In this document: piece by piece, positions 2,968-43,950 of the stretch
How the letters are laid out: each line of letters opens with the position of its first letter
Position numbering within the stretch: position 1 is the stretch's first letter
NCBI GenBank assembly: GCA_002070275.1
Contig: MWCY01000002.1
Coordinates: 11,820 to 75,819, forward strand
DNA: 64,000 bases
Reading direction: 5' to 3'
Source: Candidatus Hydrogenedentes bacterium ADurb.Bin170
Lineage (GTDB): Bacteria; Hydrogenedentota; Hydrogenedentia; Hydrogenedentales; CAITNO01
The notes under the pieces: generated by a model
Seen by the model: the letters and a program-made list of their open reading frames with translations, nothing else
Told to the model about the DNA's origin: nothing
Databases searched by the model: none
Translations under genes and position numbers: made by a program

Positions 2968-4167
2968 TTATTGTATACCAAGGGATGGCTCCGGTGCATA
3001 TCTGCGGCTCACAATGTCTTCAATCAGTGCCTGGTACTGCTGCCTCAGAATGCGGTTTCCTTTTTCATTGAGATGACAGTGGTCGCTGAAAAGAGTTTCT
3101 CCCGGTATGCCGTGCGGCTCTGCCGAGGCAACAGCAGTTTCAACATCAGCCAACGGCACTCCGTATGTCCGGGCCAGATCACGGATGATGCCGTTTTCAA
3201 CTGGAGACGATTGGTGACGCGGAGAGGCCTGGGCAAGGATCTCAGCACCGCGCCGTTTCGCTTCGTCAAAGTCGCCCGCCTCATATAGCTGCACCACTTC
3301 CTCATAAAGCTGCCCTTCTTTTCCCGGCAGATTGGGTCTGATCAGATTGGACGGCACGGTACCGATAATCAGCGGTACTTCCGCTTCTCTGCACTGGGCA
3401 ATAATCATGGTCAGGTTCTGCCGGTATGCCTCCATACGCCCGTCGATTTCTTCCTGAGTGAACACCATTTCCCAGGTTTTTGAGGAGTCAGGGATAGACT
3501 GCGCCAGATCCCGTGCCTGCCTGCTCTCTTCGAGCCGGGCAATAGCTTTTCTTGCGCGCATCTCCCGTATCAGACGGTAGAACGCCGATTTCCCCAGATA
3601 CTGCTGCACTTTTCCATAATTTTTCAACGAGAGATGCAGCTGCTGCAATTCTTCGAATTCGTTGTGACCGCTGTACAGCAGAACAATATCAGGCTGATAA
3701 TGAAGAATTTCCGCCGCAATCAGCACAAGCCTGTGGCTTCCATAGGAGAGCCCGCCGCAATTGATCACCTCAACAGCATCGACAGACGCATGAAAGCGGT
3801 GTTCCAGTTCTTTTTCCAACTCCGAAAACTCGTAATCCAAATAATTAACTGAAGAACCGCCCAAAGCGAAGATACGCAGTACGCCCGGCGGTTTGGGCAT
3901 TTTAAAACGCTGCTGTTTAAAAGACACCGTTTTTTCAGGACGGGTTTCCATCCACCCGCCTGGTACAGGCGCAAAAAGCAGGCTGCTTTCGTCAAATCCC
4001 TGCCCGATATCGACCTGCAGCACCGGATGAGCGGATTCATAAAAACGGGCGATAATTTCCAGACCGCCGAAGAAAAGCAAAAGAGGCAGGCAAATTAAAA
4101 GGAACTGAAACAGACCTGAGAAAGGTCTTCCGGGCAGGGAATTGTTTTCGGATTTTGCTACATTCAC
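2968..4167 (-). CDS. SGNH/GDSL-like hydrolase family protein, N-terminal membrane anchor
   Basis: N-terminal hydrophobic helix. GGSS block (IFALGGSSV) as a GDS(L)-like nucleophile region. C-terminal SDHCHLNEKG (DxxH catalytic dyad motif of SGNH hydrolases). Confidence 0.45.
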   Translation of the reverse strand: MNVAKSENNSLPGRPFSGLFQFLLICLPLLLFFGGLEIIARFYESAHPVLQVDIGQGFDESSLLFAPVPGGWMETRPEKTVSFKQQRFKMPKPPGVLRIFALGGSSVNYLDYEFSELEKELEHRFHASVDAVEVINCGGLSYGSHRLVLIAAEILHYQPDIVLLYSGHNEFEELQQLHLSLKNYGKVQQYLGKSAFYRLIREMRARKAIARLEESRQARDLAQSIPDSSKTWEMVFTQEEIDGRMEAYRQNLTMIIAQCREAEVPLIIGTVPSNLIRPNLPGKEGQLYEEVVQLYEAGDFDEAKRRGAEILAQASPRHQSSPVENGIIRDLARTYGVPLADVETAVASAEPHGIPGETLFSDHCHLNEKGNRILRQQYQALIEDIVSRRYAPEPSLGIQ

Positions 4168-9573: not shown

Positions 9574-12216
9574 GTGTCCGTTCAGGGACTTCCGGAAGTC
9601 ATGTCTACTGCTTCCACAGGATGCTTCATGTTTTTCACTTCTTTGTTTCTACTTTTCGGGAACAGCCTCATGTTTGCCACTACTCAGGATCTCATGTTCA
9701 GTCCCGCTTTTTACGAAACAGGTACTGGATGCATCTGGACACGTCCGCATTCCGAACTTCTTTCCATGGATGAATGGTTCCTCGCCGGACCTGCTCCCGG
9801 AATATACCGTGACGAATGGCTGGAAGCCGCTGCGGACTACCGCGACCAGGTCAGCCAGGGCGGCAAACGATTTTTACTGCTGGACACTGCCCGCGGAGTC
9901 GCCCGTGTACAGCCTTCTTCAGCACTGACCCGGCTGCTGAAACTCCAGCCGGGGGACGAACTTTTTTACTCTTTCCGTGCACGGAGCGGAAAAGAATCTG
10001 TATTTTCTCTAACCCTGGAAGAAATCACCCACGAGCAGGGGTCGCCGGACAACTGGCAGAAGACATTGCAGACACTGCACCTTCCCGGAGACGGGGAATG
10101 GCATGAGCTTTCCTGGTCTGTAAACATCCCTGAAGACGTTCCGGAAACCTGTATCGCAGCCCCTGTCCTGACTCTGATGCCCGGCTCTGACATGTCCGCT
10201 TCCGCGGAAATCGCCGGCATTCTCTTCGGCATCGGTGACACGGAGCGGATGTCCCTGCTGGGGAATCACTTGCGTTTCATGAACAGCACCCATATGTGCC
10301 GGTGCATTTACAACCGTGACGATCTGGAATGGGCAGGCAGTGCCTTTTCCGGTTATTTTCTTTTCGCCTATGACCGCCGGTTCTACACCCCGGAAGAGGG
10401 ATACAAAACCCAGGCACTGATTGAGGATTTTCAGGAACGGCTGGGCGGGGTGGATACTGTAGTCTTCTGGCCTTCTTATCCGCAGCTGGGTGTGGATGAC
10501 CGCAGTCAGTTTGATTTCTTCGACGATATGCCCGGCGGTTTGACGGGGCTGCGGGAGCAGTTCCGTCTGATGCAGGAAAAGGGCATCCGCATTCTCCTGC
10601 CTTTCCTGCCCTGGGACACGGGCACCCGTCGCGAAAATGATGAAGCGGAAAAGCAGCTGATCGCACTCGTTGCGGCTCTGGAAGCGGACGGAATCTTCAT
10701 GGACAGCCTGTCCGGTGCAGAAGACCGGCTCCGGATGGCGACCGACTCGGAAAAACTGGGCGTGGTTTTTGTTCCCGGCGCATGCCCCCCTGTGGAGCAG
10801 GTGAGTGTATGCAATCTGTCCTGGGCGCAAAATGCGGAGTATCCCATTCCTCCGGGAATCCCTTTGCTGAAATGGGTGGAACCACGGCACATGCAGCATT
10901 TCGTGCGCCCTTTCAGCCTGGATCGGCGTGAAGAAATCGAGCAGGCTTTTTTCAACGGATCCGGTCTGATGATCTGGGAAAATGTTTTCGGCTTTGCCAA
11001 TCCTCTGTCCGAAGAGGATGCCGCACTATGGAAACGCTGTGTATCCATTTTGCGAAGCATGCATAAGCCTTTCACATCCTCCCTTTGGGATCCTTTTTTC
11101 CCGTCCCTTCAGGAAGACCTCTATATTCACCGCTGGCCGGGTGCGCCGGGCACTGTCTTCACGCTGATCAATAAAGGGGAGCCTCTGGAATATGTGCCTC
11201 TTATCCGATGGAAACTTCCTGAATCTCTGCGTGCCGATCAGATGGTCGTCTATGATCTGTGGAATGGCGGTACTCTCCGCTGGGATATGAACGAATTCGG
11301 TGCCGTTCAGGTATGGGGCGACGTGGAGCGTCTGGGCTGTATCGCCATCAGTTTTTCGCCTGACGAAAATCTTGAAAATCTGGCGGCACAGCGGAAAAAA
11401 GAACAGCTTCCGGAGGCATCATCCCGCCATCAATACCTCGCACTTCCGCAGCGTCTCGCAGCGCCGGCAGCGAATGCATCTTCAAACACGGGCGGAACAG
11501 ACGGAATGCGGTTTATCTCCGGTGGCGGCATTACGCTGGCAGCGGCAAATCCGGGCAATCCGGCAGATGAGCGTCTGCTTCCTTTACAGAAACAGGCAGA
11601 GGCAGAAACGCATCAGGTCAATCCTTTTTATATGGACGAAGCACAGGTCAGCAACGGAGCGTTCCAAGTGTTTCTTCAGGAAACGGGATATCATCCTGAA
11701 AATGATCAGAATTTCCTGAAACATTGGGGCGGCCGTTCCATGCCGGATGCGCTGGCGGATCTTCCTGTCGTCTATGTTTCCCTCGAAGATGCCCGGGCAT
11801 ATGCAGCCTGGGCGGGCAAACGCCTTCCGACGGAAGAAGAATGGCAGGCAGCCGCTCAGGGAGAGGACGGACGCTGCTGGCCGTGGGGCAACGATTTCAG
11901 CAGTCAGCACTGCGCTCCGGCGGGTACAGCACCTGCATCGGTTCGCAGTTGTGCGTCAGGCAGAAGCCCTTACGGCATGTACCATATGACCGGCAATGTG
12001 CGCGAATGGACGGAAAGCGAATACAGCGACGGAATCACCCGTTTCTGTATACTCCGGGGCGGCTCCTGCTATGAGGCAAAAGGCAGCCGGCGTTATGTTC
12101 CGGGCGGACCGCAGCCGGTAACAGCCCGCACAAAATATCTGCTGATGCATCCCGGCCTCGACCGGTCGTCGCTGATCGGGTTCCGCTGTGCGAAAGATGC
12201 GGTCAGCGCCGGCTGA
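9574..12216 (+). CDS. Large two-domain protein: glycoside-hydrolase-like TIM-barrel region plus C-terminal FGE-sulfatase (SUMF1-like) domain
   Basis: Hydrophobic N-terminus. Middle region with GH-like blocks (VVFWPSYPQLGVDDRSQFDFFDD...GIRILLPFLPWDTG...ADGIFMDS). C-terminal approximately 280 aa with the FGE/SUMF1 pattern (PVVYVSLEDARAYAAWAGKRLPTEEEW...GNVREWTES...RGGS...GFRCAKD). Confidence 0.6.
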   Translation: MSVQGLPEVMSTASTGCFMFFTSLFLLFGNSLMFATTQDLMFSPAFYETGTGCIWTRPHSELLSMDEWFLAGPAPGIYRDEWLEAAADYRDQVSQGGKRFLLLDTARGVARVQPSSALTRLLKLQPGDELFYSFRARSGKESVFSLTLEEITHEQGSPDNWQKTLQTLHLPGDGEWHELSWSVNIPEDVPETCIAAPVLTLMPGSDMSASAEIAGILFGIGDTERMSLLGNHLRFMNSTHMCRCIYNRDDLEWAGSAFSGYFLFAYDRRFYTPEEGYKTQALIEDFQERLGGVDTVVFWPSYPQLGVDDRSQFDFFDDMPGGLTGLREQFRLMQEKGIRILLPFLPWDTGTRRENDEAEKQLIALVAALEADGIFMDSLSGAEDRLRMATDSEKLGVVFVPGACPPVEQVSVCNLSWAQNAEYPIPPGIPLLKWVEPRHMQHFVRPFSLDRREEIEQAFFNGSGLMIWENVFGFANPLSEEDAALWKRCVSILRSMHKPFTSSLWDPFFPSLQEDLYIHRWPGAPGTVFTLINKGEPLEYVPLIRWKLPESLRADQMVVYDLWNGGTLRWDMNEFGAVQVWGDVERLGCIAISFSPDENLENLAAQRKKEQLPEASSRHQYLALPQRLAAPAANASSNTGGTDGMRFISGGGITLAAANPGNPADERLLPLQKQAEAETHQVNPFYMDEAQVSNGAFQVFLQETGYHPENDQNFLKHWGGRSMPDALADLPVVYVSLEDARAYAAWAGKRLPTEEEWQAAAQGEDGRCWPWGNDFSSQHCAPAGTAPASVRSCASGRSPYGMYHMTGNVREWTESEYSDGITRFCILRGGSCYEAKGSRRYVPGGPQPVTARTKYLLMHPGLDRSSLIGFRCAKDAVSAG

Positions 12217-12306
12217 AGAAGGAAAATTTTCCGAGCGCAACGCTCTCCGACGGCTTGTAATTTTTACAATTTGACTGCTACACTCTTCAACAATGGAGGA
12301 CACACC

Positions 12307-13284
12307 GTGAACGTGCAGAAAGCTGTAATTACCGCCGCCGGTCGTGGAGTCCGGCTGTTTCCCGTAGCAGATACCGTGCAGAAAGGCATGCTGCCGCTGC
12401 AGGACAGAGACGGTCTGGTCAAACCTGTGATTCAGATCATCATCGAGGAAGCGCTGGAAAGCGGCATAGAAGAACTGTGTATTGTCTGTGCTCCAGGGGA
12501 CGAAAGCCGCTATAGGCAACAAATGCAGCAGATCCGCGACAATCTCCTGGAAGGCTACTCAGGGGAGCAGTGGGCGCAGCAGCAGGCGGCAAGGCTGGAA
12601 GTTATCCTGAACAAACTGTCTTTTGCCGTTCAGGAAGAGGCGCTGGGCTACGGTCATGCGGTTTACTGCGCCAAAGACTTTGCAGGGGATGCTCCTTTTC
12701 TGCTGCTGCTCGGCGATCACCTTTATGTCTCTCATCTTGAAGGGAAACGCTGTGCTCAGCAGCTGCTGGCGCTGGCTGCACAGGAACAATGTGCCGTTGC
12801 GGCAGTTAACCCCACGAGAGAACATCTCGTCGGCAATTACGGTACAGTCAGCGGTAAGCGCGTCCCTGCCATGCCCGGCGTGTACACCCTTGAAAAGATC
12901 ATCGAAAAACCCTCAGTCAGCCTGGCGGAATCAGTTCTGCAAACCCCCGGTCTCCGGGCAGGTCATTATCTGTGCTTTTTCGGGATGCATGTACTCACAC
13001 CGGGGATTTTCCCCCTTATTGAAGAAGAAATGGCGCAGTCGAAACGCAGCAACAGCAGCTGCCAGCTGACTCCGGCTCTTCAGGCGCTGGCATTGCGGGA
13101 GAAGTATCTGGCTACAGAGGTTCAGGGAAGTCGCTATGATATCGGCGCCCGCTACGGACTGCTTCTGGCTCAAATGGCGCTGGGACTCGCCGGACAGGAT
13201 CGGGACGTCATGCTCTCCGATGTTGTGTCTCTTCTGGCGGAATGTCGCTGCAACAGCAGCCCTTCGATGGAAAGACAGGTATGA
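12307..13284 (+). CDS. Sugar-1-phosphate nucleotidyltransferase (GalU/UTP-glucose-1-phosphate uridylyltransferase-like)
   Basis: KAVITAAGRGVRLFPVADTVQKGMLPL matches the GalU-type (A)VIPAAGLGTRFLP..K.MLP motif. Probable GTG start at 12307 with GGAGGA SD 7 nt upstream. The longer ATG ORF begins at 12271. Confidence 0.65.
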   Translation: MNVQKAVITAAGRGVRLFPVADTVQKGMLPLQDRDGLVKPVIQIIIEEALESGIEELCIVCAPGDESRYRQQMQQIRDNLLEGYSGEQWAQQQAARLEVILNKLSFAVQEEALGYGHAVYCAKDFAGDAPFLLLLGDHLYVSHLEGKRCAQQLLALAAQEQCAVAAVNPTREHLVGNYGTVSGKRVPAMPGVYTLEKIIEKPSVSLAESVLQTPGLRAGHYLCFFGMHVLTPGIFPLIEEEMAQSKRSNSSCQLTPALQALALREKYLATEVQGSRYDIGARYGLLLAQMALGLAGQDRDVMLSDVVSLLAECRCNSSPSMERQV

Positions 13285-16200
13285 ACGCTTTTATCGAGAC
13301 CATCACCAGCCGTGACGAAGTTCTGCGCAACCGCCCCTTTCGCACCCTGTGCGCCGGCAGAAATTCTGCTGAACTTCTGGCGGCGGCACGGGAACTGGAA
13401 GCCTTCCGGCAGTCTTCAGAAAATCTTTACGAGCGGGTGCGGGCATCTCTTTTTCTCTACGCCCTTCACCGTTTTTACCTGAGTGAATCGGCAGACTTCC
13501 CCGCTTCGGGCACACTCCCGCCTTCCGGTTTCTATGATCTCATGGAGCGACGTTTTGAAGAAGCACTTGCCTGCTTCTGGAAAGAGGTGAATGAGCAGGG
13601 CGCTACAGGAGCACTTTGCAGTGCGCTGGCGGAAAGCTATCACCATCTCTCTTTTGACACGCTGAGCGATCAGGTGCGGCGCAGCGTGCGCTCGAGCCGT
13701 GGCAATCAGTGGATGTTCCGGGTCGGTCACCCTGCAGAACATCCCCTCCGCTGTCGCCCTGAGCTGCAGCGCCGAGCCTCAGGAGAAAGCCTCTACCCTG
13801 TCCTTGTTGAGCGGACACCAGTCCGGCTGGATCTAAGCCACAGCGGATGGTCCGACATTTTCTTTCTCGGCATGGACTACCCTGAAGGGGCACGCGTGCT
13901 CAATATCAGCGTGGATCTGGGCGTATACGGTCGCGACAGCAGCACCCGCCCTCCGGTACAGGCCTATGTCCGGGTCATCACCGAACCGGTTCTTCGCATC
14001 ACCAGTCTTGATCTGGGAACAAGCAAAGACATCCGGGATCTGGGTGATCTCTTCAATTTCGGTAATGACTATCTGAGCCTTTTAAAAGCCGGGATCATCG
14101 CCTCCGGCTTTATCCCGCCTTCTTTTGAAGGCACGGACATACCTCTGGCCGGGATTCTGGGTGAGGTTATCCGCCCCGGCATGGGAATGGAACTTGTCAC
14201 TCAGGTGAACGATATCCCCAAAGGATCCCGCCTCGCTGTTTCCACAAACCTGCTCGCCTGTGTCATTGCGCTGCTCATGCGCGCCACCGGCCAAACACAG
14301 TCCCTCACAGGTTCACTTACAGAAGAGGAACGGCGCCTTGCCGCATCCCGAGCCATTCTGGGCGAATGGCTGGGCGCTTCAGGCGGAGGCTGGCAGGATT
14401 CAGGCGGCATATGGCCGGGCATCAAAGTGATCCGCGGCGCCCTTGCGGGAGAATCCGATCCTGAACACGGTATAAGCAAGGGGCGGCTCCTGCCTGAGCA
14501 TCAGATTCTGGGCGATCAGGATCTGCATCCGGACATTACCGAACGGCTGGCGGCATCGCTCGTGTTAATTCACGGCGGCATGGCGCAGAACGTAGGACCC
14601 ATTCTTGAAATGGTTACCGAAAAATATCTGCTCCGCTCCCAGCCCGAATGGGACGCCCGCCTGCGGATGGACAAGATTTTCAACGGCATCCGCAGTGCCC
14701 TGAAAACAGGAGACATTAAAGCGCTGGGCGCCTGCACCACACAAAACTGGAATGATCCGCTCAAAACCATTATCCCCTGGGTCAGCAATCATTTCACGGA
14801 AAGCATCATCAGCCGCGCACGGGCGGCACTTGGGGACGATTTCTGGGGCTTTCTCATGCTGGGCGGCATGTCCGGCGGCGGTATGTGCATGATGGTGGCG
14901 CCTGAACGGCGGGAAGCCTTCCGTGACATTATTCTTGACATCATGCAGTCAACAAAAGAGGAGCTGGAAGAAGCCCTGCCCTTTGCCATGAATCCTGTCG
15001 TCTATGATTTTACGATCAACAATCAGGGAACACAGGCGGCGCTGCTGACCGGAGAAGAAGCACTGCTTCCCATGTCCTATCACATACTGCTCACCCCGGA
15101 TCTTGCCCGAAACTGCCCGGAGAATCTCCCGTTGCAGCGGCGGATAGAACTGGATTGCGCCATCGCCGCCTGCCCAGAACCGGATAAACGGGATCAATTG
15201 CTTCGAACACTTGTGGGCAGCCTGTTCCGTGTAGGAGATGCGCTGTCACGAAGCGAGAAGAACCAATGGGACGAAGAAGCGGAAGCGATCAAGGCACAGA
15301 ACGGCTTTGACAGCATTCAGCATGAAATGATCCGGGATGATCTGCGGGGGGGCCGCATCGGGCTTTCCCGGAACCGCCTGCCCGCCGATACGCTCATCGA
15401 AGATGTTCAGGATCAGGATATCCTATTTCTTAAAGCCGATGCCCGAAGCAGACAGTCGGGCGAAGAAGCGCTCAGAGCGGGCACCGTTGCTGTGCTGTCC
15501 CTGGCTGCCGGCGTAGGCAGCCGCTGGACAACAGGTGCTGGCGTAATCAAAGCAATCAACCCCTTTATTTTTATGGCAGGCAGGCATCGCAGCTTTCTGG
15601 AACTCCATCTGGCAAAAACACGGGAAAGCATGCAGCGGTACAGCTGCGTAATCCCTCATATAGTGTCCACCAGTTTTCTCACCCATGGGCCTGTCGTAAA
15701 GCATCTGGAGCAACAGAAACGCTATCAGCATCCAGGCCCCCTTTACCTGTCGCCGGGCAGATCCATCGGACAGCGTTTTGTGCCTATGGTGCGGGATCTT
15801 CTTTTTCTCTGGGAAGAAACGACTCAGGAAAGCCTGGATGAACAGAAACAGAAGGTGCGCGATGCCGTCCGGGCAGCACTGATCGACTGGGCGAAAGCCA
15901 AAGGGGAAGGAACGGACTATACGGACAACCTGCCTATCCAGCGGTTTAATCCGCCCGGCCACTGGTACGAGGTCCCCAATCTGCTGCTGAACGGCGTACT
16001 GGCGCAGTTGCTGCAGGATCAGCCTCAGATCAAAACCCTCCTGCTGCACAATATCGACACGCTCGGTGCCGATCTGGATGCAACTGCTCTGGGCATGCAT
16101 CTTCTGTCGGGCAATGCGCTCAGCTTTGAGGTTACACCCCGGCGTATTGCGGATCGGGGCGGCGGTCTTGCGCGGGTAAACGGAAGACTCAGGCTGCTGG

Positions 16201-16616
16201 AAGGGCTGGCACAGCCCCGGGAAGAAGATGAACTCCGGCTGCGCTTCTACAATACGATGACCACCTGGATCGATGTCGATGCGCTATTGCAGCAGTTCGG
16301 GCTGGTGCGCGAAGATTTATGCCGGTCACGGGATAAAGTCGCTCAGGCTGTACGCATGATGGCAAGGCGCATGCCCAGTTATGTCACGATTAAAGATGTG
16401 AAACGACGCTGGGGCCGCGGGCAGGAAGATGTTTACCCGGTTGCTCAGGTGGAAAAACTCTGGAGCGACATGAGCGCACTCCCCGACCTGTCCTGCGGTT
16501 ATATGGTTGTGCCCCGCTTCAGAGGCCAGCAGCTGAAAGATCTGAACCAGCTCGACGCCTGGGCAAATGACGGAAGCAAGGACTGGATCGCCCGCCTTTG
16601 CGGACTTCAGGGCTGA
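13281..16616 (+). CDS. Bifunctional fucokinase-type GHMP sugar kinase / UDPGP-family (UGPase-like) nucleotide-sugar pyrophosphorylase fusion (1112 aa)
   Basis: GGWSD-like fucokinase motif (LDLSHSGWSDIFF). GHMP motif-II-like PKGSRLAVSTNLLACVIAL. GHMP C-terminal-like region (..GGMSGGGMCMMV..). C-terminal domain with the UDPGP blocks (LSLAAGVGSRW..; LLHNIDTLGADLD, cf. NIDNLGA of UGPases). ATG 13281 overlaps the upstream stop (ATGA). Confidence 0.55.
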   Translation: MNAFIETITSRDEVLRNRPFRTLCAGRNSAELLAAARELEAFRQSSENLYERVRASLFLYALHRFYLSESADFPASGTLPPSGFYDLMERRFEEALACFWKEVNEQGATGALCSALAESYHHLSFDTLSDQVRRSVRSSRGNQWMFRVGHPAEHPLRCRPELQRRASGESLYPVLVERTPVRLDLSHSGWSDIFFLGMDYPEGARVLNISVDLGVYGRDSSTRPPVQAYVRVITEPVLRITSLDLGTSKDIRDLGDLFNFGNDYLSLLKAGIIASGFIPPSFEGTDIPLAGILGEVIRPGMGMELVTQVNDIPKGSRLAVSTNLLACVIALLMRATGQTQSLTGSLTEEERRLAASRAILGEWLGASGGGWQDSGGIWPGIKVIRGALAGESDPEHGISKGRLLPEHQILGDQDLHPDITERLAASLVLIHGGMAQNVGPILEMVTEKYLLRSQPEWDARLRMDKIFNGIRSALKTGDIKALGACTTQNWNDPLKTIIPWVSNHFTESIISRARAALGDDFWGFLMLGGMSGGGMCMMVAPERREAFRDIILDIMQSTKEELEEALPFAMNPVVYDFTINNQGTQAALLTGEEALLPMSYHILLTPDLARNCPENLPLQRRIELDCAIAACPEPDKRDQLLRTLVGSLFRVGDALSRSEKNQWDEEAEAIKAQNGFDSIQHEMIRDDLRGGRIGLSRNRLPADTLIEDVQDQDILFLKADARSRQSGEEALRAGTVAVLSLAAGVGSRWTTGAGVIKAINPFIFMAGRHRSFLELHLAKTRESMQRYSCVIPHIVSTSFLTHGPVVKHLEQQKRYQHPGPLYLSPGRSIGQRFVPMVRDLLFLWEETTQESLDEQKQKVRDAVRAALIDWAKAKGEGTDYTDNLPIQRFNPPGHWYEVPNLLLNGVLAQLLQDQPQIKTLLLHNIDTLGADLDATALGMHLLSGNALSFEVTPRRIADRGGGLARVNGRLRLLEGLAQPREEDELRLRFYNTMTTWIDVDALLQQFGLVREDLCRSRDKVAQAVRMMARRMPSYVTIKDVKRRWGRGQEDVYPVAQVEKLWSDMSALPDLSCGYMVVPRFRGQQLKDLNQLDAWANDGSKDWIARLCGLQG

Positions 16617-23800: not shown

Positions 23801-26800
23801 CTATTGCAGGTGCGGCAGCACGACCTGACCTTCAGCCTGTGCCACCAGATCGTGATAGGCACCATAAAAAACGCTGTTCCCGTCTATCCACAGAGTAATA
23901 CGGCGCAGCTCTTCGGGTGAAAGTGCCACACCGTAATGCCCCGCTTCCAGGAGAGCCAGCAGAGGCGAAGCGTGGGCACCTACTTGACCCGGAATATTAT
24001 AGGATGTTTTATTGCGCTTCAGTCCGATCCCATTTCCACCGTGACGTACCCAGACGAAAGGCCGAAGCGACTCGAAGGCCTGAGACCATCCGTAGGCACC
24101 TCCCGCCTCCCTTCCGAATTTCGGCGCCTCTTTTTCCCGGGCATGGCAGTCAGCACAGTGCCTGTCCAGTACAGGCTGCACCAGACGGGAAAATTGGAGC
24201 GGCCAGGAACCGTCCGCTTCCGCTTTCAGTTTATCCGGTGCCCGTCGCAGGGCAAGAGGCAGCCGCTTGGGCACTGCCGGAGACTGTCGGACCGGCTCAT
24301 GGCAGCCGGCACAGGACAGATGTTCGCCCGGATGCAGATAGGTTGCGGAACTCATGGTCTGCACTGCCATACCCCGTTCATCCAGTGCCTGAAAATAGAA
24401 AGGTACCCCCGCCGGTGCCATGAAATGAGCGCTTCCGTCTTCCTCTACAGGCACGGTACCCAGCACGCCCCGCGCCACCGATTCATCACCGGCACCGATA
24501 TTCGGTTTTTCCGGAGCCGGCGTTGATTTCGGAAACATCTGTATGAGGCGGAGCTCTTTAATTCTGGTGTTTTCCGGCCACTCCCGGCGGGTCTCGTATA
24601 TATTCATCACTGAAATCACACCTGTCGGCGGCTCAGCCTGCGCAACTGTTTCATAATGTGTCTGCACGGGAATAATCGGCGGCCTCGGCCGTGCACGGAA
24701 AGGAATGGGAGTGGAACAGCCTATGCTGTCATCCCGGTACAGAATTTCCCGGTTGCCGAAGGAGTCGACAAGATATAAATCATGCTTGCTCTGGTCAGGA
24801 TCATACACAGCGAGATAAAAGTCTTCGCTCAGAGGCCAGGGCGTCCCGTACACCTGCCCGTCACCGCCGCCGCCCTGAGGACTTCGGGGTACCCCCGGCG
24901 CCGACTCCGCTTCCGGAAATTTAGCTTCCGGCGTTACACGTCTGATCTGTCCTGTGGATTGATCATCTTCAAGGTGAAGATCAATAGTAATGATGGAGCC
25001 GAAGAACTGGCCGTGATGCGTGGCGGCAGTTGCAGCGTATTTGTGCGAGCCGGGAATGGCACGAAGAGACATTTCCATCCACGGACGTGATTCCCGGACA
25101 GCCGGGTAATTGCCGTGGGGGCCGCGCGGGTCTCTGCCGTCCGGATAGACAAGCCACAGATGATGGGCAATGTCGCTGTCCCGATCCACGTAATCCCAGC
25201 GGGTATACACGACCATGCCGTTATTATCCACACTGGGCAGCCATTCATGGGTCTCGTGATAGCTGAAGGGCAGAATTTCTTTCAGGGCACTGTCCATCTG
25301 AAAAAGCGTATAGGTGGGGCACACGCGTCCGCAGCGCAGAAATCCGCCTCTCCGCTCAGAAGTAAACACAATGCGGCCGTCGGGAAGCCAGCAGGGATGC
25401 ATGTCATTCCAGGGCCCGTCAGTCAGCTGGGTCAGCCCTGTGCCGTCCGCATTCACACTGAATAAATGATAGGCCCTGCCTGGATCCCAGGGCTCTTTCC
25501 AGTAATTTGCCTGATCTTCTCTGTGGTACTTGTGGCGCTTGTCGCCGCGGCATTCCACATAGGCAAAAAGAATCCGGGTGCCGTCAAAAGAAAGATCCGG
25601 AGATAGGAAGGCACCGCCTCCCGCATCGGCTCCCTCCGTCAGCAGCCCTTCACCGTCATAATAAAGATCCGGTGCCGCCGTGCCACCGTGCAGCTTTTCA
25701 CCTGCCAGCCTTCCCGATTCAACAACGGAATCGGCAAGCAGATCTTTTGTGACAGGAGCATCGGTAAACGCATTTTCCAGAACAAATAGTCCGCCGCCGG
25801 GCCGGGCGGCTATGCCGTAGAACTGATCGCACATATGCTCATAAATAGCACGGTGTCTTTTCAGAAACAGGATGCGATCAAAATTCAGCAGCGGATTGGA
25901 AAAAGCAATCTCCCGGCGCAGTGCACACAGACGGTGAAAACAGAGCCGCTCCTCCTGCAGCCCGACAGCCCCCTGCCCTTCTTCAATCTTCGCAACAAGG
26001 GGCGCCAATTCGGAAAGAGCAGCTTCCATGCCGCTGTAATCTCTGTCCGGATAGCGTGCGGACAAATAGTCAAGAAGTGCCCGGGTGCGCCGCCAGACAA
26101 TGCCTGTCGGAGAGCGGTCCGTGTCATGAATCAGCGAATCAGGACGCAGCGCTTCCCGGGCAAGCCGCTCATTATTCCATTCCGGACGGGCAGCAATCTG
26201 CCGCCTCAGTTCTCTGTATTCGGCATCCCGAACCGCACTGAGCGGAAGCGTCTCTCTCGCACCGGGAAATTCCGCAATGATCACGACATTATCATCAAAC
26301 TGCGGAATATAGATCCGGTTCTCGTGCCACGCCGTCCCGATATCAGCAGGCGATTGAAGCGTATGCAGTGTGCGGACACTCTTCCGGTCTGCTGTAATGA
26401 TACAAATTTTGTTGCCGACAAAATCCGAGACGATAAAGTCACCGGAAGGGGTGACTTCTATGCCGTCCAGGTTGGTGAAATGTTCGGCAAGGCCGAAAGG
26501 CACCGGAGCATTCTGTCCGGCAGGATCCACCTCATAGATTTCATGAAGTGTCCAGGAAACGGCGTACAGTTTTTCCCCGTGAACAGTAACACCATTCACG
26601 CCCTCAATTTCTCCCACAAGGGCATGATTGCCCGCCCCACTGATATCCACCCGCCAGATGTGCCCCTTTTCGACATCAGACACATAAACAGCACCATCGC
26701 CCGCAGCCATGTCGTTCAGCCTGCCCGCCCCTGCCGGTGCATAACTTTTTCTGAAGGATCCGTCGGCGAGAGAATAAGCAACAACACGACGGTTGTCTGC

Positions 26801-27130
26801 TGCATAAAGAACTCCGTTGAGGATTGCCATGCCTTTGGGCTGATGCAACGGAAATGCCTCAGTGCTTTCCACCCATTTCAACTGATCAAGTTTTCCGTCA
26901 GGGCTGATTCGGGAAATGAAGCCGGCCCCCGTATCTGTCCAGTATCCTTCAGGTGCCGACGCAATATTCGATACATAGGCGAAGCCTGTTTCGGGATCTG
27001 CAACAACACATTCCGGTGTGGAAAATCCGTGAATAGCGTGCAAAGGCTGCAGTTCCTGTGCCGGAAGCCCGGCGGACAACAGAAGGAAACAAAGGGAAAA
27101 GGACAAAGACAGGAACGCTGAAGAACGCAT
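23801..27130 (-). CDS. Large secreted multi-domain protein: N-terminal NHL/SMP-30-like beta-propeller, central PD40-like repeats, C-terminal putative di-heme c-type cytochrome region
   Basis: Signal peptide MRSSAFLSLSFSLCFLLLSAGLPAQE (start 27130). PD40-like blocks (WLPDGRIVFTSERRG..; VYPDGRDPRG). Two CxxCH motifs near the C-terminus (LSCAGCHEP; DRHCADCHAREKE). Confidence 0.5.
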   Translation of the reverse strand: MRSSAFLSLSFSLCFLLLSAGLPAQELQPLHAIHGFSTPECVVADPETGFAYVSNIASAPEGYWTDTGAGFISRISPDGKLDQLKWVESTEAFPLHQPKGMAILNGVLYAADNRRVVAYSLADGSFRKSYAPAGAGRLNDMAAGDGAVYVSDVEKGHIWRVDISGAGNHALVGEIEGVNGVTVHGEKLYAVSWTLHEIYEVDPAGQNAPVPFGLAEHFTNLDGIEVTPSGDFIVSDFVGNKICIITADRKSVRTLHTLQSPADIGTAWHENRIYIPQFDDNVVIIAEFPGARETLPLSAVRDAEYRELRRQIAARPEWNNERLAREALRPDSLIHDTDRSPTGIVWRRTRALLDYLSARYPDRDYSGMEAALSELAPLVAKIEEGQGAVGLQEERLCFHRLCALRREIAFSNPLLNFDRILFLKRHRAIYEHMCDQFYGIAARPGGGLFVLENAFTDAPVTKDLLADSVVESGRLAGEKLHGGTAAPDLYYDGEGLLTEGADAGGGAFLSPDLSFDGTRILFAYVECRGDKRHKYHREDQANYWKEPWDPGRAYHLFSVNADGTGLTQLTDGPWNDMHPCWLPDGRIVFTSERRGGFLRCGRVCPTYTLFQMDSALKEILPFSYHETHEWLPSVDNNGMVVYTRWDYVDRDSDIAHHLWLVYPDGRDPRGPHGNYPAVRESRPWMEMSLRAIPGSHKYAATAATHHGQFFGSIITIDLHLEDDQSTGQIRRVTPEAKFPEAESAPGVPRSPQGGGGDGQVYGTPWPLSEDFYLAVYDPDQSKHDLYLVDSFGNREILYRDDSIGCSTPIPFRARPRPPIIPVQTHYETVAQAEPPTGVISVMNIYETRREWPENTRIKELRLIQMFPKSTPAPEKPNIGAGDESVARGVLGTVPVEEDGSAHFMAPAGVPFYFQALDERGMAVQTMSSATYLHPGEHLSCAGCHEPVRQSPAVPKRLPLALRRAPDKLKAEADGSWPLQFSRLVQPVLDRHCADCHAREKEAPKFGREAGGAYGWSQAFESLRPFVWVRHGGNGIGLKRNKTSYNIPGQVGAHASPLLALLEAGHYGVALSPEELRRITLWIDGNSVFYGAYHDLVAQAEGQVVLPHLQ

Positions 27131-27280
27131 GGCCGACTCTCCTGAACTTGAATATTTCCGGATCTGAAAAATGAAACGATCCGGTATTTTGGTGCTCATA
27201 TCACTGCTGTGGTATTGTGTAGCTTCTTCCTTTTTTTACGCTGCCATTTTAACAGGAACCTCACGCTGAAAGGAAAAAGC

Positions 27281-29061: not shown

Positions 29062-29218
29062 AAAGCCGCCAATTGGCAAGTTTTTTTCTTCCTGTGTTTT
29101 CAGAATTCTGAAGCACTTGACGTGTCGTCCTGTTTGCAAACAATCTCCGGTGCGGATACAATGACTCCGGAATTTTTAGCGCCCGCCGCACACCGGAATC
29201 TACTTTTTGAGAGTGTTT

Positions 29219-32200
29219 ATGAATAAAAAGAACCTTGCAATCGCTGTGAAATTGTGTGTTGTCGCCGCCCTGTTCCTGCTTATTTTTCAGCCGGAGCTTT
29301 TCGGACTGAAAGGACTCTTCGGAGACGTTGCGCCACTGGATGTCTGGAACGCCCTGAAAGAGGCCAGCAGTACGGGTCCCGCTACTTTTCTTTTTTTTAT
29401 GAGCTGTGCAGTGATCGTAAAACTGGCAGGCATCTTCTCAGGCATTATTCGATGGCGGCTGCTGCTGGCAGGACAGGGACTCAAAATCCCGTTCACCTAT
29501 CTGACCTATCAGTGGTTCATGGGGCGGGCGATCGGGCTGTTTCTTCCCGGCACGCTCGGGCTCGACGGCTTCCGGCTGATTGAATCATCCCGATACACCC
29601 GGGAAGTAGTCAAATGCACGACAGTGATCGCTGTTGAAAAACTGACGGGCATCATTGCGCTGGCGCTCCTGGTCTTTCTGACTTTTCCCCTTGGCTTCAA
29701 ATATTTGAACATCAATGTGGCAATGCTTGCGATCATTATGCTCTGCCTTCTCGGCGGTGTCATTTGCAGCCTTCTGCTGCTGCTCAATCCCCGGGTCATT
29801 CAGGTGATCGCAGCGGTGATGCCTGTGCCAAACGTTGCCAGAGGACTGATCAATAAGCTGGGCAGGGCGGCAACAGCATACAGCAACTCCAGAAGAACCC
29901 TGCTCACAGCACTCTTTTTCGGCGTACTGGTGCATCTGGGCTCCTGCTCCAAATATTTTTTCACATTCATGGCAATCCGTGCCGCCCATGTGTCCCCGGC
30001 AGATATCTTTTTTGTGAGCCCTCTTATGATCACCGCATCTGTGCTTGCCTTCACTATTTCAGGGCTGGGAGTGCGTGAAATGGCATTCGGTCTTGTGCTT
30101 GGCGGCAGCGCCGGGCATGCCGTCGCCATTCTGGGCGGTCATCTGGGGTTGTGGGCGGGTGAAATTCTTCCCTTCATTCTCAGCGTACCGCTGCTGCTTT
30201 TCAGCGGGCGACCCAGCAGAGATAAGTTGGAGGAAGACCGCGCCTATGTGGAGCAGAACCTTGCCGACCGCCAGCAGGCACTGCAGCCTCTTCTGAGCGA
30301 AGAAGAAAAAACGAAATACAGAAAACGACTTCTGGAAATGCTTTTCTGCGGCACGGCGGCGGGACTGCTGGCAGGCGCCGTCATTGCGCTTCTGGAAGGC
30401 GCCTGGATTCTTTTTCATCTGCAGGGACTGCAGGAGTGGTATTTTCTCGGATGGGGCACTGCCGCCTACAGCCTGCTCTTTGCCGGGCTGGGCTGCGGAA
30501 TTGCCGGTGGACTCATGTTCATCTGCCTTCTTTTTGACCGTTTCATGCCCTGGCCTGTCACAACAGCACTAATCTATACAGGGACAGCGGCACTTGGCGG
30601 TCTGGTAATCGGTATGTTCCGCTATCAGCGGGATATTCTTGCGGGGCATGCAATGACACCTCGCGATCTTATCATGGTTGCCGCTTTTGTTCTGGGAACG
30701 GCACTGATTCTGGGAATTCTTGCGTTTCTGAAGTCGGAATTCTGCCGCCGTTTTCTGAGTCTGCAGGTGCCCGGGTTCATGGCTGTATGTTTTCTTTCCT
30801 GGCTGCTGCTGATCACCTGCGCTTTCGCTGCCGGAGCATTTGCGGCACCTCAAAAGGAAAGTGCCCCGATGCTGACCGGAACCCCCGCAAAGGGACCGAA
30901 TATCATCCTTTGTGCCGCCGATGCGATGCGCGCTGATTGCCTGCCTTTTTACAACCCGTCAATAACCACGGAAACGCCCAATCTCACAGCGCTGACGAAG
31001 GATGCCATCCTTTTTAAACGCGCTTATGCACAGGCGCCCTGGACCAAGCCGTCCTTTGCGACCATGTTTACAGGCCTGTATCCCGGCGCTCATGGTGCCG
31101 CCAGCAAAACAGCGTCCCTCTCTGCCGATGCACCTGTTGTGGCAGGTCTTCTGCAGGCGGGCGGCTATTTCACCCGGGGCTTCTCCAACAATCCGAACAC
31201 CACCGCTCTCTTCGGCTTTGACCGCGGCTTTTCCCAGTTTACAGACCTCAAACCTGACCCTCTTTTTGGTGCACCTCAGTCCGCCATGCATCTGTCTCTT
31301 TACGGGTTGATGCGCAAAGTTTTTCTTACTGCTGAAGGCAAACTGCGGGGGGGCAGACTGCGCATCACCGACTTTTATCAGCCCGCCGAAGTCGTTACTG
31401 ACACTGCTCTTGGCTGGATAGACAGCCGGAAAGAAGAAGGAGACCGCCCCTTCTATTTATATCTGCATTACATGGATACCCACGACCCGTTCATGGATCA
31501 TGCCGATCCGGGGAAAGGCTATGCCCGTGCACGTATGGAACACCCGGACCCCGACAGATATCTGGAACCCATGCGCCAGGCCTATCTGTCGGAAATCGAA
31601 TATATGGATAAACACCTCGGACGCTTCTTCGACGGTCTGAAAGTGCGGAATCTCTACGACAACACGCTTATCATCTTTGTTTCCGATCACGGCGAGGAGT
31701 TTTTTGATCATCAGGGCTGGTGGCATGGACAGACCCTGTATGAAGAACTGCTGCATGTTCCCCTGATCATGAAATTCCCCGGAAATACTCAGGGCGGTAC
31801 TGTTACTGATGATCTGGCACGGCTTGTGGATCTTGCGCCTACTATCCTGCAGACGGCCGGGCTTCCTCTCTGTCCCGATATGTCCGGACTACCGCTCACC
31901 GATAAGACCGGTACCCCCGCCAACAGCAGTATCCGGTATAGTTATGCGGAAAATGATTTTGAAGGAAACAGACTTCAGGCACTGCGTACCGGAGAACGGG
32001 CAGTCATTCAGGCAAATGAAAACAACACGCGCGGGCTTGCTCCTGTGGAATTTTATAATATGGTTCAGGATCCGCTGCAGCAGCATAATCTGGCAGAACG
32101 GTCTGATGCGGCAGAAGAAGTGAATAGCCTGCTCGAAGTGATCGTCCAGTTCATGAAGGCTATAGCCGACAAGGCACCGCTGCCTTCAGGCGAAACAGCC

Positions 32201-32248
32201 ATTGACCCCCAATTGCAGCAGCAGCTCGAAGCACTCGGTTACATGTAA
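29219..32248 (+). CDS. Fusion of lysyl-PG-synthase-type TM (flippase-like, UPF0104) domain with C-terminal sulfatase-family / alkaline-phosphatase-superfamily phosphotransferase-like domain (Thr at nucleophile position)
   Basis: N-terminal approximately 330 aa polytopic region resembling the MprF/LPG_synthase_TM flippase-like domain. Further TM helices follow. C-terminal approximately 450 aa sulfatase fold (PNIILCAADAMRADCLPFYN..TPNLTALTKDAILFKRAYAQAPWTKPSFATMFTGLYPGAHG..FVSDHGEEF..). Thr occupies the Cys(FGly) position of CxPxR, as in LtaS/EptA/OpgB-type transferases. ATG 29219; the ORF TTG is at 29207. Confidence 0.6.
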   Translation: MNKKNLAIAVKLCVVAALFLLIFQPELFGLKGLFGDVAPLDVWNALKEASSTGPATFLFFMSCAVIVKLAGIFSGIIRWRLLLAGQGLKIPFTYLTYQWFMGRAIGLFLPGTLGLDGFRLIESSRYTREVVKCTTVIAVEKLTGIIALALLVFLTFPLGFKYLNINVAMLAIIMLCLLGGVICSLLLLLNPRVIQVIAAVMPVPNVARGLINKLGRAATAYSNSRRTLLTALFFGVLVHLGSCSKYFFTFMAIRAAHVSPADIFFVSPLMITASVLAFTISGLGVREMAFGLVLGGSAGHAVAILGGHLGLWAGEILPFILSVPLLLFSGRPSRDKLEEDRAYVEQNLADRQQALQPLLSEEEKTKYRKRLLEMLFCGTAAGLLAGAVIALLEGAWILFHLQGLQEWYFLGWGTAAYSLLFAGLGCGIAGGLMFICLLFDRFMPWPVTTALIYTGTAALGGLVIGMFRYQRDILAGHAMTPRDLIMVAAFVLGTALILGILAFLKSEFCRRFLSLQVPGFMAVCFLSWLLLITCAFAAGAFAAPQKESAPMLTGTPAKGPNIILCAADAMRADCLPFYNPSITTETPNLTALTKDAILFKRAYAQAPWTKPSFATMFTGLYPGAHGAASKTASLSADAPVVAGLLQAGGYFTRGFSNNPNTTALFGFDRGFSQFTDLKPDPLFGAPQSAMHLSLYGLMRKVFLTAEGKLRGGRLRITDFYQPAEVVTDTALGWIDSRKEEGDRPFYLYLHYMDTHDPFMDHADPGKGYARARMEHPDPDRYLEPMRQAYLSEIEYMDKHLGRFFDGLKVRNLYDNTLIIFVSDHGEEFFDHQGWWHGQTLYEELLHVPLIMKFPGNTQGGTVTDDLARLVDLAPTILQTAGLPLCPDMSGLPLTDKTGTPANSSIRYSYAENDFEGNRLQALRTGERAVIQANENNTRGLAPVEFYNMVQDPLQQHNLAERSDAAEEVNSLLEVIVQFMKAIADKAPLPSGETAIDPQLQQQLEALGYM

Positions 32249-33527: not shown

Positions 33528-34511
33528 TCAGCCCCGGGTACGATCCATCAACGTGCCGAGAAACAGCGCCATGCCTTTATTCGCCGGTGCTTTGGCGGAC
33601 GGATAACGGAGAAACTCCACATGACCATCCATATACAGCACATTGGCACCGCCGGGCACATGGTTAAAATATTTTATATTGCTTGAAATCGCATCAAACA
33701 TGACCCATATATCGCTCTGCGCGCGGGCACTTGCTGCCGGGTTGTTGATATCCGTAATGAGAAAACGCTCTATACCTTCCCTCAAACGGTTAATCGTATT
33801 ACTGGAACCGTTGCCCATAGGAATCAGACCCAGACTGTTGGTCTGCACGGGACTGACTTCCTTGTCTTTATCCACCACCTGAAAACTGGCAACTACCGGA
33901 TCTTCTCCCGCACTGCGCCGGGCAATGGCATCACCGGCAGTCGTAAGCACCAGCGTCACAAACTGGTAGGGCCCCGATGCGTTCGGATCATCGAGAATAA
34001 AGCGGTTGGACAACTGGGGAATAATGGAAAAAACACCGCCCAGCGAAATGAAGGCTTCGTCCGGCTGATCATCGCCGCATTTATCCAGAAGAAACCCCAC
34101 ATACCCGTAACTGGTGTCAATAAGGTCGGGATGAAGATGCAGGATAAAATCGCCGGTATCAGGATCTTTCAGATCAGCCAGGCTGCTGGATGCATCGGAG
34201 GGGCACCAGGCAATGGAAGGATCCGTAAGATACTCGGGATAGATTGATTTCACCATGGGACCGATGGCAATATCGGCATTGTGATGGCTCCGGGCTTCAA
34301 ACTGCATGGGAGGGTATTTTTCGCCAGGAGATTCATTGGCGTACATCTTATATACCAGGCCCCATTGTTTCAGATTGTTCTGACAGCTCGAGCGACGGGC
34401 AGCCTCGCGTGCCCGTGCCAGTGCCGGAAGCAGAATAGCGGCAAGAATACCGATGATGGCTATCACAACCAGCAATTCAATCAGGGTAAAGCCTTGCTTG
34501 TTCTTTTTCAT
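33528..34511 (-). CDS. Prepilin-type N-terminal cleavage/methylation domain protein, DUF1559 family
   Basis: Class III signal [31 protein letters not shown] (G-1/F+1/E+5). C-terminal ..[15 protein letters not shown] typical of DUF1559. AGGAGA SD before ATG 34511. Confidence 0.8.
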
Positions 34512-34879
34512 AACTGTCTCCTTGAGAGCGTGAAACCTGTTCCCGAATCTGTACACGCTTTTCACTGCATGTTTTTAAAAATAAATTAACCTTAAATATA
34601 AAACTTTCATTTTTATCAGTCTATTAATAAAGACTTGAACATTTCGGAACGGGTTTCAGGTGCAGCACAGCCGCCCTTGCGTCCTGTAAATACGCTGCAG
34701 GTGCGCCATTTTCCACTTTTCTCCACCCGACTCATCAAAACAGCCTCAGAAGACTGCTTTCTCCTTCCACAAGACCATCTATCTATAGTGGGTGTATTGT
34801 TTCTATCCACAACATACAGTGGCTTTCCCTTTTAGTCAAAAATGATCTTGCAGAAACGGTTTTTTAAGCAAAAAAGGTA

Positions 34880-35433: not shown

Positions 35434-35770
35434 TCAACAGACCAAAGATGCAGTGGCAGTGCTGACTGCTTCGGGCGTGCTCGACCAGGCTGAAATTCAC
35501 AAACTCCGTGAGGCCGTTGCCCGCAACATCCGCAAACACCAGTTTCATCTGGTGCTGAATCTGCGGCACGTCGGCATGATTGAATACCCGAGCTTCGGCG
35601 TTTTGCTGGAACTGCTCAGTGAACTCCAGCAGTATGGCGGCGGTCTGAAACTTGCCTGCGCCAATCTCCATACGCAGCGCATGCTGCGTCTCATGGGTCT
35701 CTGCCGGGTTCTCATGTGTTTCGATACGGAAGCGGAGGCAATCCGGCAGTATCAGAAAGAAGCAGCGTAA
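35420..35770 (+). CDS. STAS domain protein (anti-sigma-factor antagonist family)
   Basis: MLTIDQQTKDAVAVLTASGVLDQAEIHKLREAV..HLVLNLRHVGMIEYPSFGVLLEL..GGGLKLACANLHTQRMLRLMGL is SpoIIAA/RsbV-like, with a Ser at the phosphorylation position (EYPSFG). AGGAGG SD 9 nt upstream of ATG 35420. Overlaps the mraZ end by 14 nt. Confidence 0.7.
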   Translation: MLTIDQQTKDAVAVLTASGVLDQAEIHKLREAVARNIRKHQFHLVLNLRHVGMIEYPSFGVLLELLSELQQYGGGLKLACANLHTQRMLRLMGLCRVLMCFDTEAEAIRQYQKEAA

Positions 35771-35816
35771 TCATATGAAGATGCCGGCTGGGCGGCAGCA
35801 GTCGGGAGACAAGCGC

Positions 35817-37327: not shown

Positions 37328-37391
37328 ACGGCGGCGGAACGGAGAGAATTGCAGGCTCTGCCGTTCCTGAAAAAAAGGGAGGTACCATCTC

Positions 37392-42437: not shown

Positions 42438-42440
42438 CGG

Positions 42441-43934: not shown

Positions 43935-43950
43935 CAAACACCGGGAAAAT

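Follow-up and report, generated by a model that had tools for sequence, protein, structure and literature searches.

Copper-dependent formylglycine-generating enzymes (FGEs), known from the structures of human SUMF1 (1Y1E) and of the S. coelicolor (2Q17/6MUJ) and T. curvata (5NXL/6S07) enzymes, have two Cu(I)-binding catalytic cysteines. The sulfoxide and selenoxide synthases EgtB, OvoA and SenA consist of an FGE-like domain in permanent fusion with another domain, and their active site is located between these domains. Among proteins related to glycoside hydrolase family 13 (GH13), the SLC3 heavy chains 4F2hc and rBAT are inactive pseudoenzymes that have lost the catalytic carboxylates and serve a non-hydrolytic role. 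FGE folds without the cysteine pair have also been described: PorK, GldK and GldJ form a 'docking hub' in the T9SS (type IX secretion system) ring (PMC12421860), and Tsi3, a T6SS (type VI secretion system) immunity protein, acts by binding (bioRxiv 10.1101/2021.05.21.445229). Here, we analysed a gene that appears to combine both folds, at positions 9574..12216 of a 64,000-nucleotide stretch (hereafter, the window) of contig MWCY01000002.1 from Candidatus Hydrogenedentes bacterium ADurb.Bin170. A first-pass annotation, made from the sequence alone, had described its product as a glycoside-hydrolase-like TIM barrel fused to an FGE-like domain apparently lacking the second catalytic cysteine, encoded next to a glycan operon. 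Our analyses suggest, with moderate confidence, that the protein is a diverged and probably hydrolytically impaired member of an uncharacterised two-domain carbohydrate-active family, in which a GH13-like barrel is combined with a cysteine-less FGE fold.

We modelled the window protein with AlphaFold2 (AF2) from a 43-sequence alignment, obtaining a mean predicted local distance difference test (pLDDT) score of 87.5 and a predicted template-modelling (pTM) score of 0.88. A second AF2 model, of the barrel and C-terminal sandwich alone, reached a pLDDT of 87. All features of this gene lie on the + strand, and residue numbers take the Met at 9628 as residue 1, except where given for the whole reading frame. 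Conserved strands and a helix (IAGPAPG..R..WL...YR; 9700..9855, model up to ~76) precede the barrel in both long and short forms of the family. They are followed by an N-terminal beta-sandwich (9871..10233, model ~82-202), which AF2 predicts and which is found only in the long forms of ~860-900 aa; the short forms, of ~700-730 aa, are without it. The (beta/alpha)8 barrel (10300..11073, model ~225-482), GH13-like by fold only, leads into a C-terminal beta-sandwich equivalent to the 'domain C' of GH13 (11089..11352, model 488-575), both of them recognised by AF2 and Foldseek. A low-confidence linker and the first FGE-like strands of the AF2 model come next (11365..11598, model ~580-657). When the barrel model was searched against the PDB with Foldseek, the top 50 matches were all GH13-type barrel enzymes (E 3.5e-12 to 5e-10), including neopullulanase, maltogenic amylase, TVAII, GlgE, TAKA-amylase and branching enzyme, with a query TM-score of ~0.55-0.63 and an identity of ~12%. 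On the other hand, PF00128 matched neither the window protein nor 20 relatives, even at E<=10. At that threshold, Pfam, run on 20 members, gave faint matches to Neopullulanase-like_C (2/20) and Bac_A_amyl_C (1), and also to GHL6. The barrel named in the first-pass annotation is thus borne out as a fold by AF2 and Foldseek, and it finds no sequence-profile support in Pfam, PDB or hhalign. We take the barrel to be GH13-like in its predicted fold and not a GH13 member by sequence.

The FGE fold at the C-terminus held far beyond chance in the profile search. The last ~215 aa (aa 662-874 of the open reading frame, ORF) matched FGE-sulfatase (PF03781) with an E of 1.1e-38 in Pfam, and the domain, which has a C-type-lectin-like fold, was recovered at 11557..12195 (model ~658-860) by Pfam, PDB sequence search and Foldseek. 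In Foldseek, the window model retrieved the FGE structures 6MUJ, 2Q17 and 1Y1E as well as pFGE (E 5e-15 to 1e-12, TM-score ~0.6 on the target). The best PDB sequence match was pFGE/SUMF2 (1Y4J), with an E of 2.3e-18 for the window protein and 2.4e-33 for the family profile. Invariant motifs of this domain in the family are RExGxY, NFLKHW, GNVWEW, GSxWY and GGPQP.

The first-pass annotation had assigned one remaining catalytic cysteine to the domain. A single Cys does follow RGGS, and the domain is not a canonical FGE; however, both catalytic cysteines are absent, not just the second. The lone Cys of RGGS-C, Cys814 (12067..12069), is not aligned with an FGE catalytic Cys in the family alignment. 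Of 206 relatives outside the window lineage, 137 have an aromatic residue (Tyr, Phe or Trp) in its column, and this Cys presumably corresponds to Tyr334 of human FGE, taking the human segment to read GGSYMC336HRSYC341. At the columns 3 and 8 residues past the RGGS Ser, where C336 and C341 would be expected, ~206 relatives carry K/Q/R/D/A and I/G/D/V/N, respectively, and the post-RGGS consensus in the 43-homolog alignment is RGGS[Y/W/F][F/Y]xAxGSxWYVxGGPQP. HMMER alignments to true FGE structures end at GNVWEW, upstream of the active-site segment. The last 81 aa alone matched only pFGE (E 4e-4) and PorK in the PDB, with no FGE match even at E<=10. A canonical Cu/O2-dependent FGE of the SUMF1 type was rejected, as both Cu(I)-binding cysteines (human C336 and C341) are missing. 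An EgtB/OvoA/SenA sulfoxide synthase was rejected as well: Pfam found no DinB_2 domain, and the scores were 59.5 bits against a cutoff of 360 for TIGR03440 and 58.8 against 420 for SenA. Membership in PorK/GldK/GldJ was rejected on NCBIfam scores of 48.5 bits against a cutoff of 350 for GldK and 23.2 against 458 for GldJ, and the ORFs annotated in the window include no T9SS genes. Judged by its sequence, the FGE-like domain is without any of the copper/cysteine machinery of FGE, and the window protein is neither an FGE nor an EgtB-like iron enzyme.

The domain might nevertheless be a divergent redox catalyst (an FGE-like copper oxidase or an EgtB/OvoA-like iron enzyme), with the barrel only binding or presenting a glycan or peptide. 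The strong PF03781 match would agree with this, as would the name 'SUMF1/EgtB/PvdO family nonheme iron enzyme' that NCBI sources give to relatives, the conserved C-G-C in the RRECGCY motif of long-form relatives, and the twin-arginine signals of some short forms, such signals being frequent on cofactor-containing proteins. Yet the FGE copper-ligand cysteines are both missing family-wide, and the DinB_2 domain needed by EgtB/OvoA is absent, with the NCBIfam EgtB score far below its cutoff as given above. Furthermore, short forms have Phe in place of the second Cys of C-G-C and the window protein lacks the motif altogether, the active-site segment finds matches in the inactive pFGE and in PorK only, and the only sulfatase-domain protein in the window has no C/S-x-P-x-R motif. 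The metagenome-assembled genomes concerned also seem to come from oxygen-poor habitats, where an O2-dependent FGE is unlikely. Taken together, we consider a redox enzyme very unlikely.

The two-domain arrangement extends well beyond this locus. Protein searches found at least 298 homologs, all with the same architecture, and the window protein is 40-51% identical to long-form members over 92-98% of the length. Searching with a barrel-unit profile retrieved 2,462 clusters at 50% identity (E<=1e-3), 580 of which reached E<=1e-30, and a scan of one genome per species yielded at least 592 family loci. The phyla among the loci listed are Hydrogenedentota, Planctomycetota, Armatimonadota, Verrucomicrobiota, Acidobacteriota, Bacteroidota, Nitrospirota and Chloroflexota. 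Both domains are present in 97 of the 150 best representatives, and the others are cut short or frameshifted (P0136, P0189). No stand-alone barrel protein was found among these 150, the apparent cases being truncated or frameshift artefacts. As the non-fused representatives are incomplete or frameshifted, the fusion of the barrel and the FGE-like domain is effectively obligate. The first-pass annotation knew of no description of the arrangement, and indeed our literature searches found no publication on it; however, it is not peculiar to this locus, as it occurs in ~2,460 clusters and at least eight phyla. What is new is the family, which pairs two known folds, whereas a cysteine-less FGE domain is in itself common and not new.

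Some members carry extra modules, namely dockerin, cohesin, FIVAR, CHB_HEX_C/Fn3_assoc (chitobiase-type), esterase, GH28/pectate-lyase-fold and periplasmic sugar-binding domains. Many members have Sec-type N-termini, and twin-arginine signals occur in 24. Twin-arginine (Tat) RRxFL starts are frequent in short forms (P0065, P0066, P0068, P0070, P0071, P0074, P0090 and P0095), and the N-termini of long forms in the Hydrogenedentota clade are short, hydrophobic and uncharged; the subfamilies appear to use different export routes. The module fusions and export signals, together with the neighbouring genes described below, point to a family that works on carbohydrates outside the cytoplasm.

Residues invariant in the family lie at or just after the barrel strands: D249 (beta1); D290, R292, Q294 and D296 (beta2 loop); W329-D330 (beta3); D354 and D359 (beta4); E384 (beta5); S398-W399-x-Q401 (beta6); R428-W429 (beta7); and W450-E451-N452 (beta8). 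In the family barrel, beta4 reads G-I-F-(L/M)-D and the segment after beta7 reads R-R-W-(D/N/S). Asp359, in ADGIFMD directly after beta4 (10702..10704), is Asp in 279 of 281 family sequences and is kept in the window copy, and position 384, directly after beta5, is Glu in 262 of 267 sequences outside the window lineage. An Asp after beta4 and a Glu after beta5 occupy the topological places of the clan GH-H nucleophile and acid/base (the latter marked in neopullulanase by the E357Q entry 1J0J), from which we infer glycosidase or transglycosidase chemistry for the family. The proposed reaction would take place at the C-terminal face of the barrel, with Asp359 as the nucleophile and Glu384 as the general acid/base. 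The two would be surrounded by a ring of D249, D290, R292, Q294, D296, W329-D330, W399, Q401, R428-W429 and W450-E451-N452. The FGE-like domain might serve as a non-redox lid or glycan-binding surface, acting through W792, W822-Y823, NFLKHW and the RExGxY loop. Because the pTM is high, the model suggests that this domain is packed on the barrel in a fixed manner. Our results show the two folds, the missing cysteines, the size, spread and obligate fusion of the family, and the residues lost in the window copy; that the substrate is a carbohydrate, that D359 and E384 are catalytic, and what the FGE-like domain does are proposals.

The window copy is atypical: in the 43-sequence alignment, it alone departs from the consensus at many of the positions that are at least 85% conserved. 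Its barrel carries the substitutions R286Q, N293S, D340A, E384G, R428P and W429F. Gly384, after beta5 (10777..10779), stands where the family has the Glu that we propose as the acid/base, and Gly at this position was found in one other cluster only. Pro428-Phe429, after beta7 (10909..10914), replaces a family Arg (257/273) and Trp (217/273). In the FGE-like domain, Arg792 in GNVREW (12001..12003) and Arg822 in GSRRY (12091..12093) take the place of Trp (184/207 and 201/205 in the family, respectively), and the family alignment places an in-frame loss of the H.RRECGCYPDPG (RExGxY) motif around 11542-11547. A frameshift as the source of the missing RRECGCY motif was rejected, as the motif is encoded in no alternative frame. 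The branch leading to the window protein is longer, with a mean identity to outgroups of 38.7% vs 43-46% for sister sequences, and no second, canonical paralogue was found within the 64-kb window. Family members without the RExG motif tend to have lost W429 as well (Fisher p 7.5e-12, uncorrected for phylogeny), and this coupling hints that the barrel and the FGE-like domain may share one functional site. In terms of the proposed mechanism, the window copy keeps Asp359 and most of the pocket and has lost E384, R428-W429, W792, W822 and the RExGxY loop. These losses suggest that it is probably hydrolytically impaired, and the label 'hydrolase' given in the first-pass annotation is doubtful for a protein that has Gly where 262/267 relatives have Glu, along with further losses. 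It may persist as a pseudoenzyme that binds glycans, or as an enzyme whose chemistry has changed.

The loss of many near-invariant residues and a branch longer than those of its sisters would also be expected of a decaying pseudogene or an annotation artefact. However, the reading frame is uninterrupted over 862-880 codons and keeps 50% identity to the nearest relatives over 95-98% of the length, both domains are modelled with confidence throughout by AF2, many independent assemblies contain identical copies, and the missing motif lies in no alternative frame. We therefore consider a pseudogene or artefact extremely unlikely.

Several points weigh against our interpretation of an impaired member of a carbohydrate-active family. 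The barrel escaped sequence comparison: Pfam and NCBIfam, run on the full protein, gave no match over the N-terminal part; phmmer with the N-terminal 624 aa gave no match in the PDB; the family profile found only insignificant PDB matches (a designed protein and a GH13 sucrose hydrolase); and hhalign against E. coli MalZ and AmyA returned probabilities of 0.1-0.7%. The family lacks two hallmarks of GH13, an Arg placed two residues ahead of the nucleophile and a His-Asp following beta7. The catalytic roles proposed for D359 and E384 are based on strand topology and conservation, not on residue-level superposition. No substrate is singled out by fusions, signals or neighbours, and no conserved operon partner was found, the commonest neighbour families occurring in at most 10 of ~80 loci. 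Export of the window protein is uncertain, with an ambiguous start codon and no charged n-region. Moreover, its 2.6-kb ORF has stayed open at 50% divergence from the nearest relatives, so the protein must still have some function, and a single lost carboxylate does not prove inactivity.

Some of this evidence bears on the possibility that the whole family is non-enzymatic, with the amylase-like barrel and the FGE fold both repurposed in a glycan-binding or scaffold protein. The lack of sequence similarity to any active GH family and the missing GH13 Arg and His-Asp hallmarks would be in line with it, and FGE folds have repeatedly been reused as docking hubs or binders (PMC12421860; bioRxiv 10.1101/2021.05.21.445229). 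Nevertheless, the dense invariant Asp, Glu, Arg and Trp residues at beta-strand ends, including the Asp after beta4 and the Glu after beta5, form an active-site pattern, and fusions to dockerin, esterase and GH28-like domains are typical of enzymes. We regard a wholly non-enzymatic family as unlikely, and retain the reading of a carbohydrate-active family with an impaired window copy.

The gene itself is an ORF of 880 codons from GTG (9574..12216), with a TGA stop at 12214-12216. ATG start candidates within it are at 9602, 9628, 9670 and 9694. The ATG at 9628, with AGGA 6 nt upstream, is the start used by JGI (862 aa), and that at 9670 is the NCBI start (848-aa product); the true start is likely ATG 9628. 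The motifs quoted in the first-pass annotation are all present in the ORF translation (EEW, GNVREWTES, RGGSCYEAKGSRRY, GFRCAKD, GIRILLPFLPWDTG and ADGIFMDS). Many independent assemblies encode proteins 99-100% identical to the window protein, on dozens of contigs that their sources assign to Candidatus Hydrogenedentota/Hydrogenedentes, so the ORF sequence is not an assembly error. One source labels an identical protein (P0122, NCBI OQB34275.1) 'Serine/threonine-protein kinase pkn1', which looks like a mis-annotation transferred from kinases with an FGE-like C-terminal domain. At one locus (L003), a genuine Pkinase + FGE-sulfatase protein is encoded two genes downstream of a family member. The N-terminus of the window protein is a hydrophobic segment, MFFTSLFLLFGNSLMFATT (9628..9684, model residues 1-19), modelled with pLDDT <50 and a helix over residues 2-15. 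The segment has no charged n-region, and sister sequences have similar hydrophobic N-termini; it may be a signal peptide or a membrane anchor.

Upstream of the gene, in divergent orientation, lie genes for an FAD amine oxidase, an oligogalacturonate-lyase-like protein, a ROK kinase, purD, a GDSL lipase and a GH3-LysM protein. The genes that follow it downstream are on its own strand and encode a nucleotidyltransferase, a UDPGP-like protein of 1,124 aa, a GT-C glycosyltransferase (PMT_2), a flippase and a GHMP kinase. The intergenic gap (12217..12306) measures 55-91 bp, and the next gene has its probable start at GTG 12307 after GGAGG. It contains no terminator-like site, and within it a perfect palindrome, TTGTAATTTTTACAA, overlaps weak -35/-10-like hexamers (TTGTAA, 18 nt, TACACT). 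The palindrome and hexamers could be an operator and a promoter of the downstream sugar-activation and glycosyltransferase genes. We also surveyed neighbours by calling ORFs on 86 loci and clustering them all against all, and no window neighbour was found beside any homolog elsewhere. The adjacency to a glycan operon, as first annotated, is therefore real at this locus and is not conserved, as none of the window neighbours recurs near homologs. The link of the barrel/FGE-like gene to this operon is local and unproven.

This context bears on whether the window protein could be an active enzyme with changed chemistry. A retaining barrel enzyme that has its nucleophile Asp and no acid/base can still accept donors bearing good leaving groups, for example sugar-1-phosphates, as GlgE does, or other activated sugars; it could also act as a transglycosylase by means of an exogenous or substrate-borne base. 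Such an activity might tie it to the adjacent sugar-1-kinase, nucleotidyltransferase and GT-C genes. The window copy does keep Asp359, most pocket residues and a long open frame, GlgE, whose donor is maltose-1-phosphate, ranks among the top structural matches, and the sugar-activation and GT-C neighbours follow on the same strand 55-91 bp downstream across a gap without a terminator-like site. However, the adjacency is seen in this genome only, and the gap has its own ribosome-binding site and weak promoter-like hexamers. The hydrophobic N-terminus and the exported relatives argue for a compartment without sugar phosphates, and the loss of other conserved residues alongside E384 resembles general relaxation and not a single adaptive switch. 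We consider changed chemistry unlikely on balance. A bolder version would hold that the barrel and FGE fold form a new carbohydrate-active enzyme family with a composite two-domain active site, as in EgtB. In the window lineage, replacement of the acid/base Glu by Gly and remodelling of the inter-domain site would then have given rise to a naturally occurring transglycosylase, or to a receptor for glycans, acting together with the adjacent genes for sugar activation and GT-C glycosyltransfer. This scenario is decidedly doubtful, and an impaired family member remains the reading we favour.

In the survey, the commonest neighbours of the family were a sugar ABC transporter with Peripla_BP_4, DUF2961, GFO_IDH_MocA oxidoreductases and a URO-D-like protein. 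DUF2961 (CAZy family GH172) lies within 10 kb of a family member at 10 of ~80 loci (L023, L024, L051, L053, L057, L058, L064, L068, L071 and L083), and the sugar ABC transporter with Peripla_BP_4 occurs in locus sets overlapping these. Such neighbours are a possible lead to the family substrate. RGL11-like/FG-GAP genes were found near family members in two further contexts. The GH3-LysM protein upstream of the window gene (338-2902, - strand) has a NagZ-like GH3 N-terminal domain and LysM repeats and adjoins the GDSL lipase-like gene (2968-4167); a GDSL/GxDLY gene is also found near a family member at locus L001. The gene for the 1,124-aa downstream protein (13242-16616, + strand) overlaps the end of the upstream nucleotidyltransferase gene. 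Its product has a partial UDPGP match at aa 899-1017 as the sole Pfam match, leaving ~900 N-terminal residues unmatched.

Gene annotation of the window covers ORFs up to 39605. The only sulfatase-domain protein (29207-32248, + strand) is a 1,013-aa fusion of LPG_synthase_TM and sulfatase/SGSH_C; as the C/S-x-P-x-R formylglycine motif is absent from it, it is not an FGE substrate. A 1,132-aa protein (23801-27199, - strand) has an HZS_alpha (hydrazine-synthase-alpha) middle domain (E 1e-21) and PD40/NHL beta-propeller repeats, and the HZS_alpha domain is unexpected outside anammox bacteria. Further along are a DUF1559/N-terminal-methylation (type II pseudopilin-like) protein (33528-34565, - strand), of a kind presumably associated with the PVC group, and an apparent cell-division/cell-wall (dcw) cluster (35652-46496, + strand) whose first genes encode MraW and a PBP3-like transpeptidase.

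Databases automatically label members of the family as 'FGE family', 'SUMF1/EgtB/PvdO family' or 'formylglycine-generating enzyme family protein'. For this family, neither 'formylglycine-generating enzyme' nor 'nonheme iron enzyme' can be right. Thousands of proteins in eight phyla are so labelled, and the labels imply sulfatase maturation or ergothioneine-type chemistry. Roughly 70% of each family protein is an amylase-fold barrel unit that Pfam, NCBIfam and PDB sequence search do not recognise. If the family is enzymatically active, it would constitute a new family of glycoside hydrolases or transglycosidases whose unusual accessory domain is always present. Counts of 'FGE' genes in metagenomes, a proxy for sulfated-glycan degradation, would then be inflated by the family. 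The window copy is a natural experiment in which the presumed acid/base and several conserved Trp residues were lost in both domains together, a hint that one functional site may be common to both. These results are relevant mainly to carbohydrate-enzyme specialists and to the correction of annotations.

Compared with the systems introduced above, the FGE-like domain has the same fold as the Cu-dependent FGEs and shares RLPTE.EW, GNVWEW and GFRC with them, whereas the window protein has neither of their Cu(I)-binding cysteines. pFGE/SUMF2 (1Y4J), the inactive human paralogue of FGE, likewise has an FGE-sulfatase fold without the two active-site cysteines, and among solved structures of FGE type it alone can be aligned through the C-terminal segment of the window protein. 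pFGE is a single-domain eukaryotic protein of the endoplasmic reticulum, whereas the window domain belongs to a bacterial protein and is joined to a barrel unit of ~600 aa; the likeness implies no orthology, and the family differs from pFGE in having its own motifs RExGxY, NFLKHW, GSxWY and GGPQP. PorK and GldK give weak sequence matches to the window protein and have the loss of the catalytic cysteines in common with it; in contrast to PorK and Tsi3, it lies outside any T9SS or T6SS context and lacks both a lipoprotein signal and the insertion domains of PorK. On the barrel side, the order of a barrel followed by a Greek-key 'domain C' is that of GH13 enzymes (neopullulanase 1J0H, TVAII 1JF6, GlgE 5LGW and TAKA-amylase 2AAA), and the neopullulanases also have an N-terminal beta-sandwich, as do the long forms of the family. 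The family departs from GH13 in its ~12% identity, in lacking Arg-x-Asp at beta4 and His-Asp after beta7, and in having no sizeable domain B (beta3-alpha3). The fate of 4F2hc and rBAT is of the kind proposed for the window copy, although these are eukaryotic membrane-transporter subunits without an FGE-like domain. Finally, in EgtB, OvoA and SenA the partner of the FGE-like domain is DinB_2 with an iron site, whereas in this family it is a (beta/alpha)8 barrel; their permanently joined domains, with the active site between them, offer a possible analogy for a composite site.

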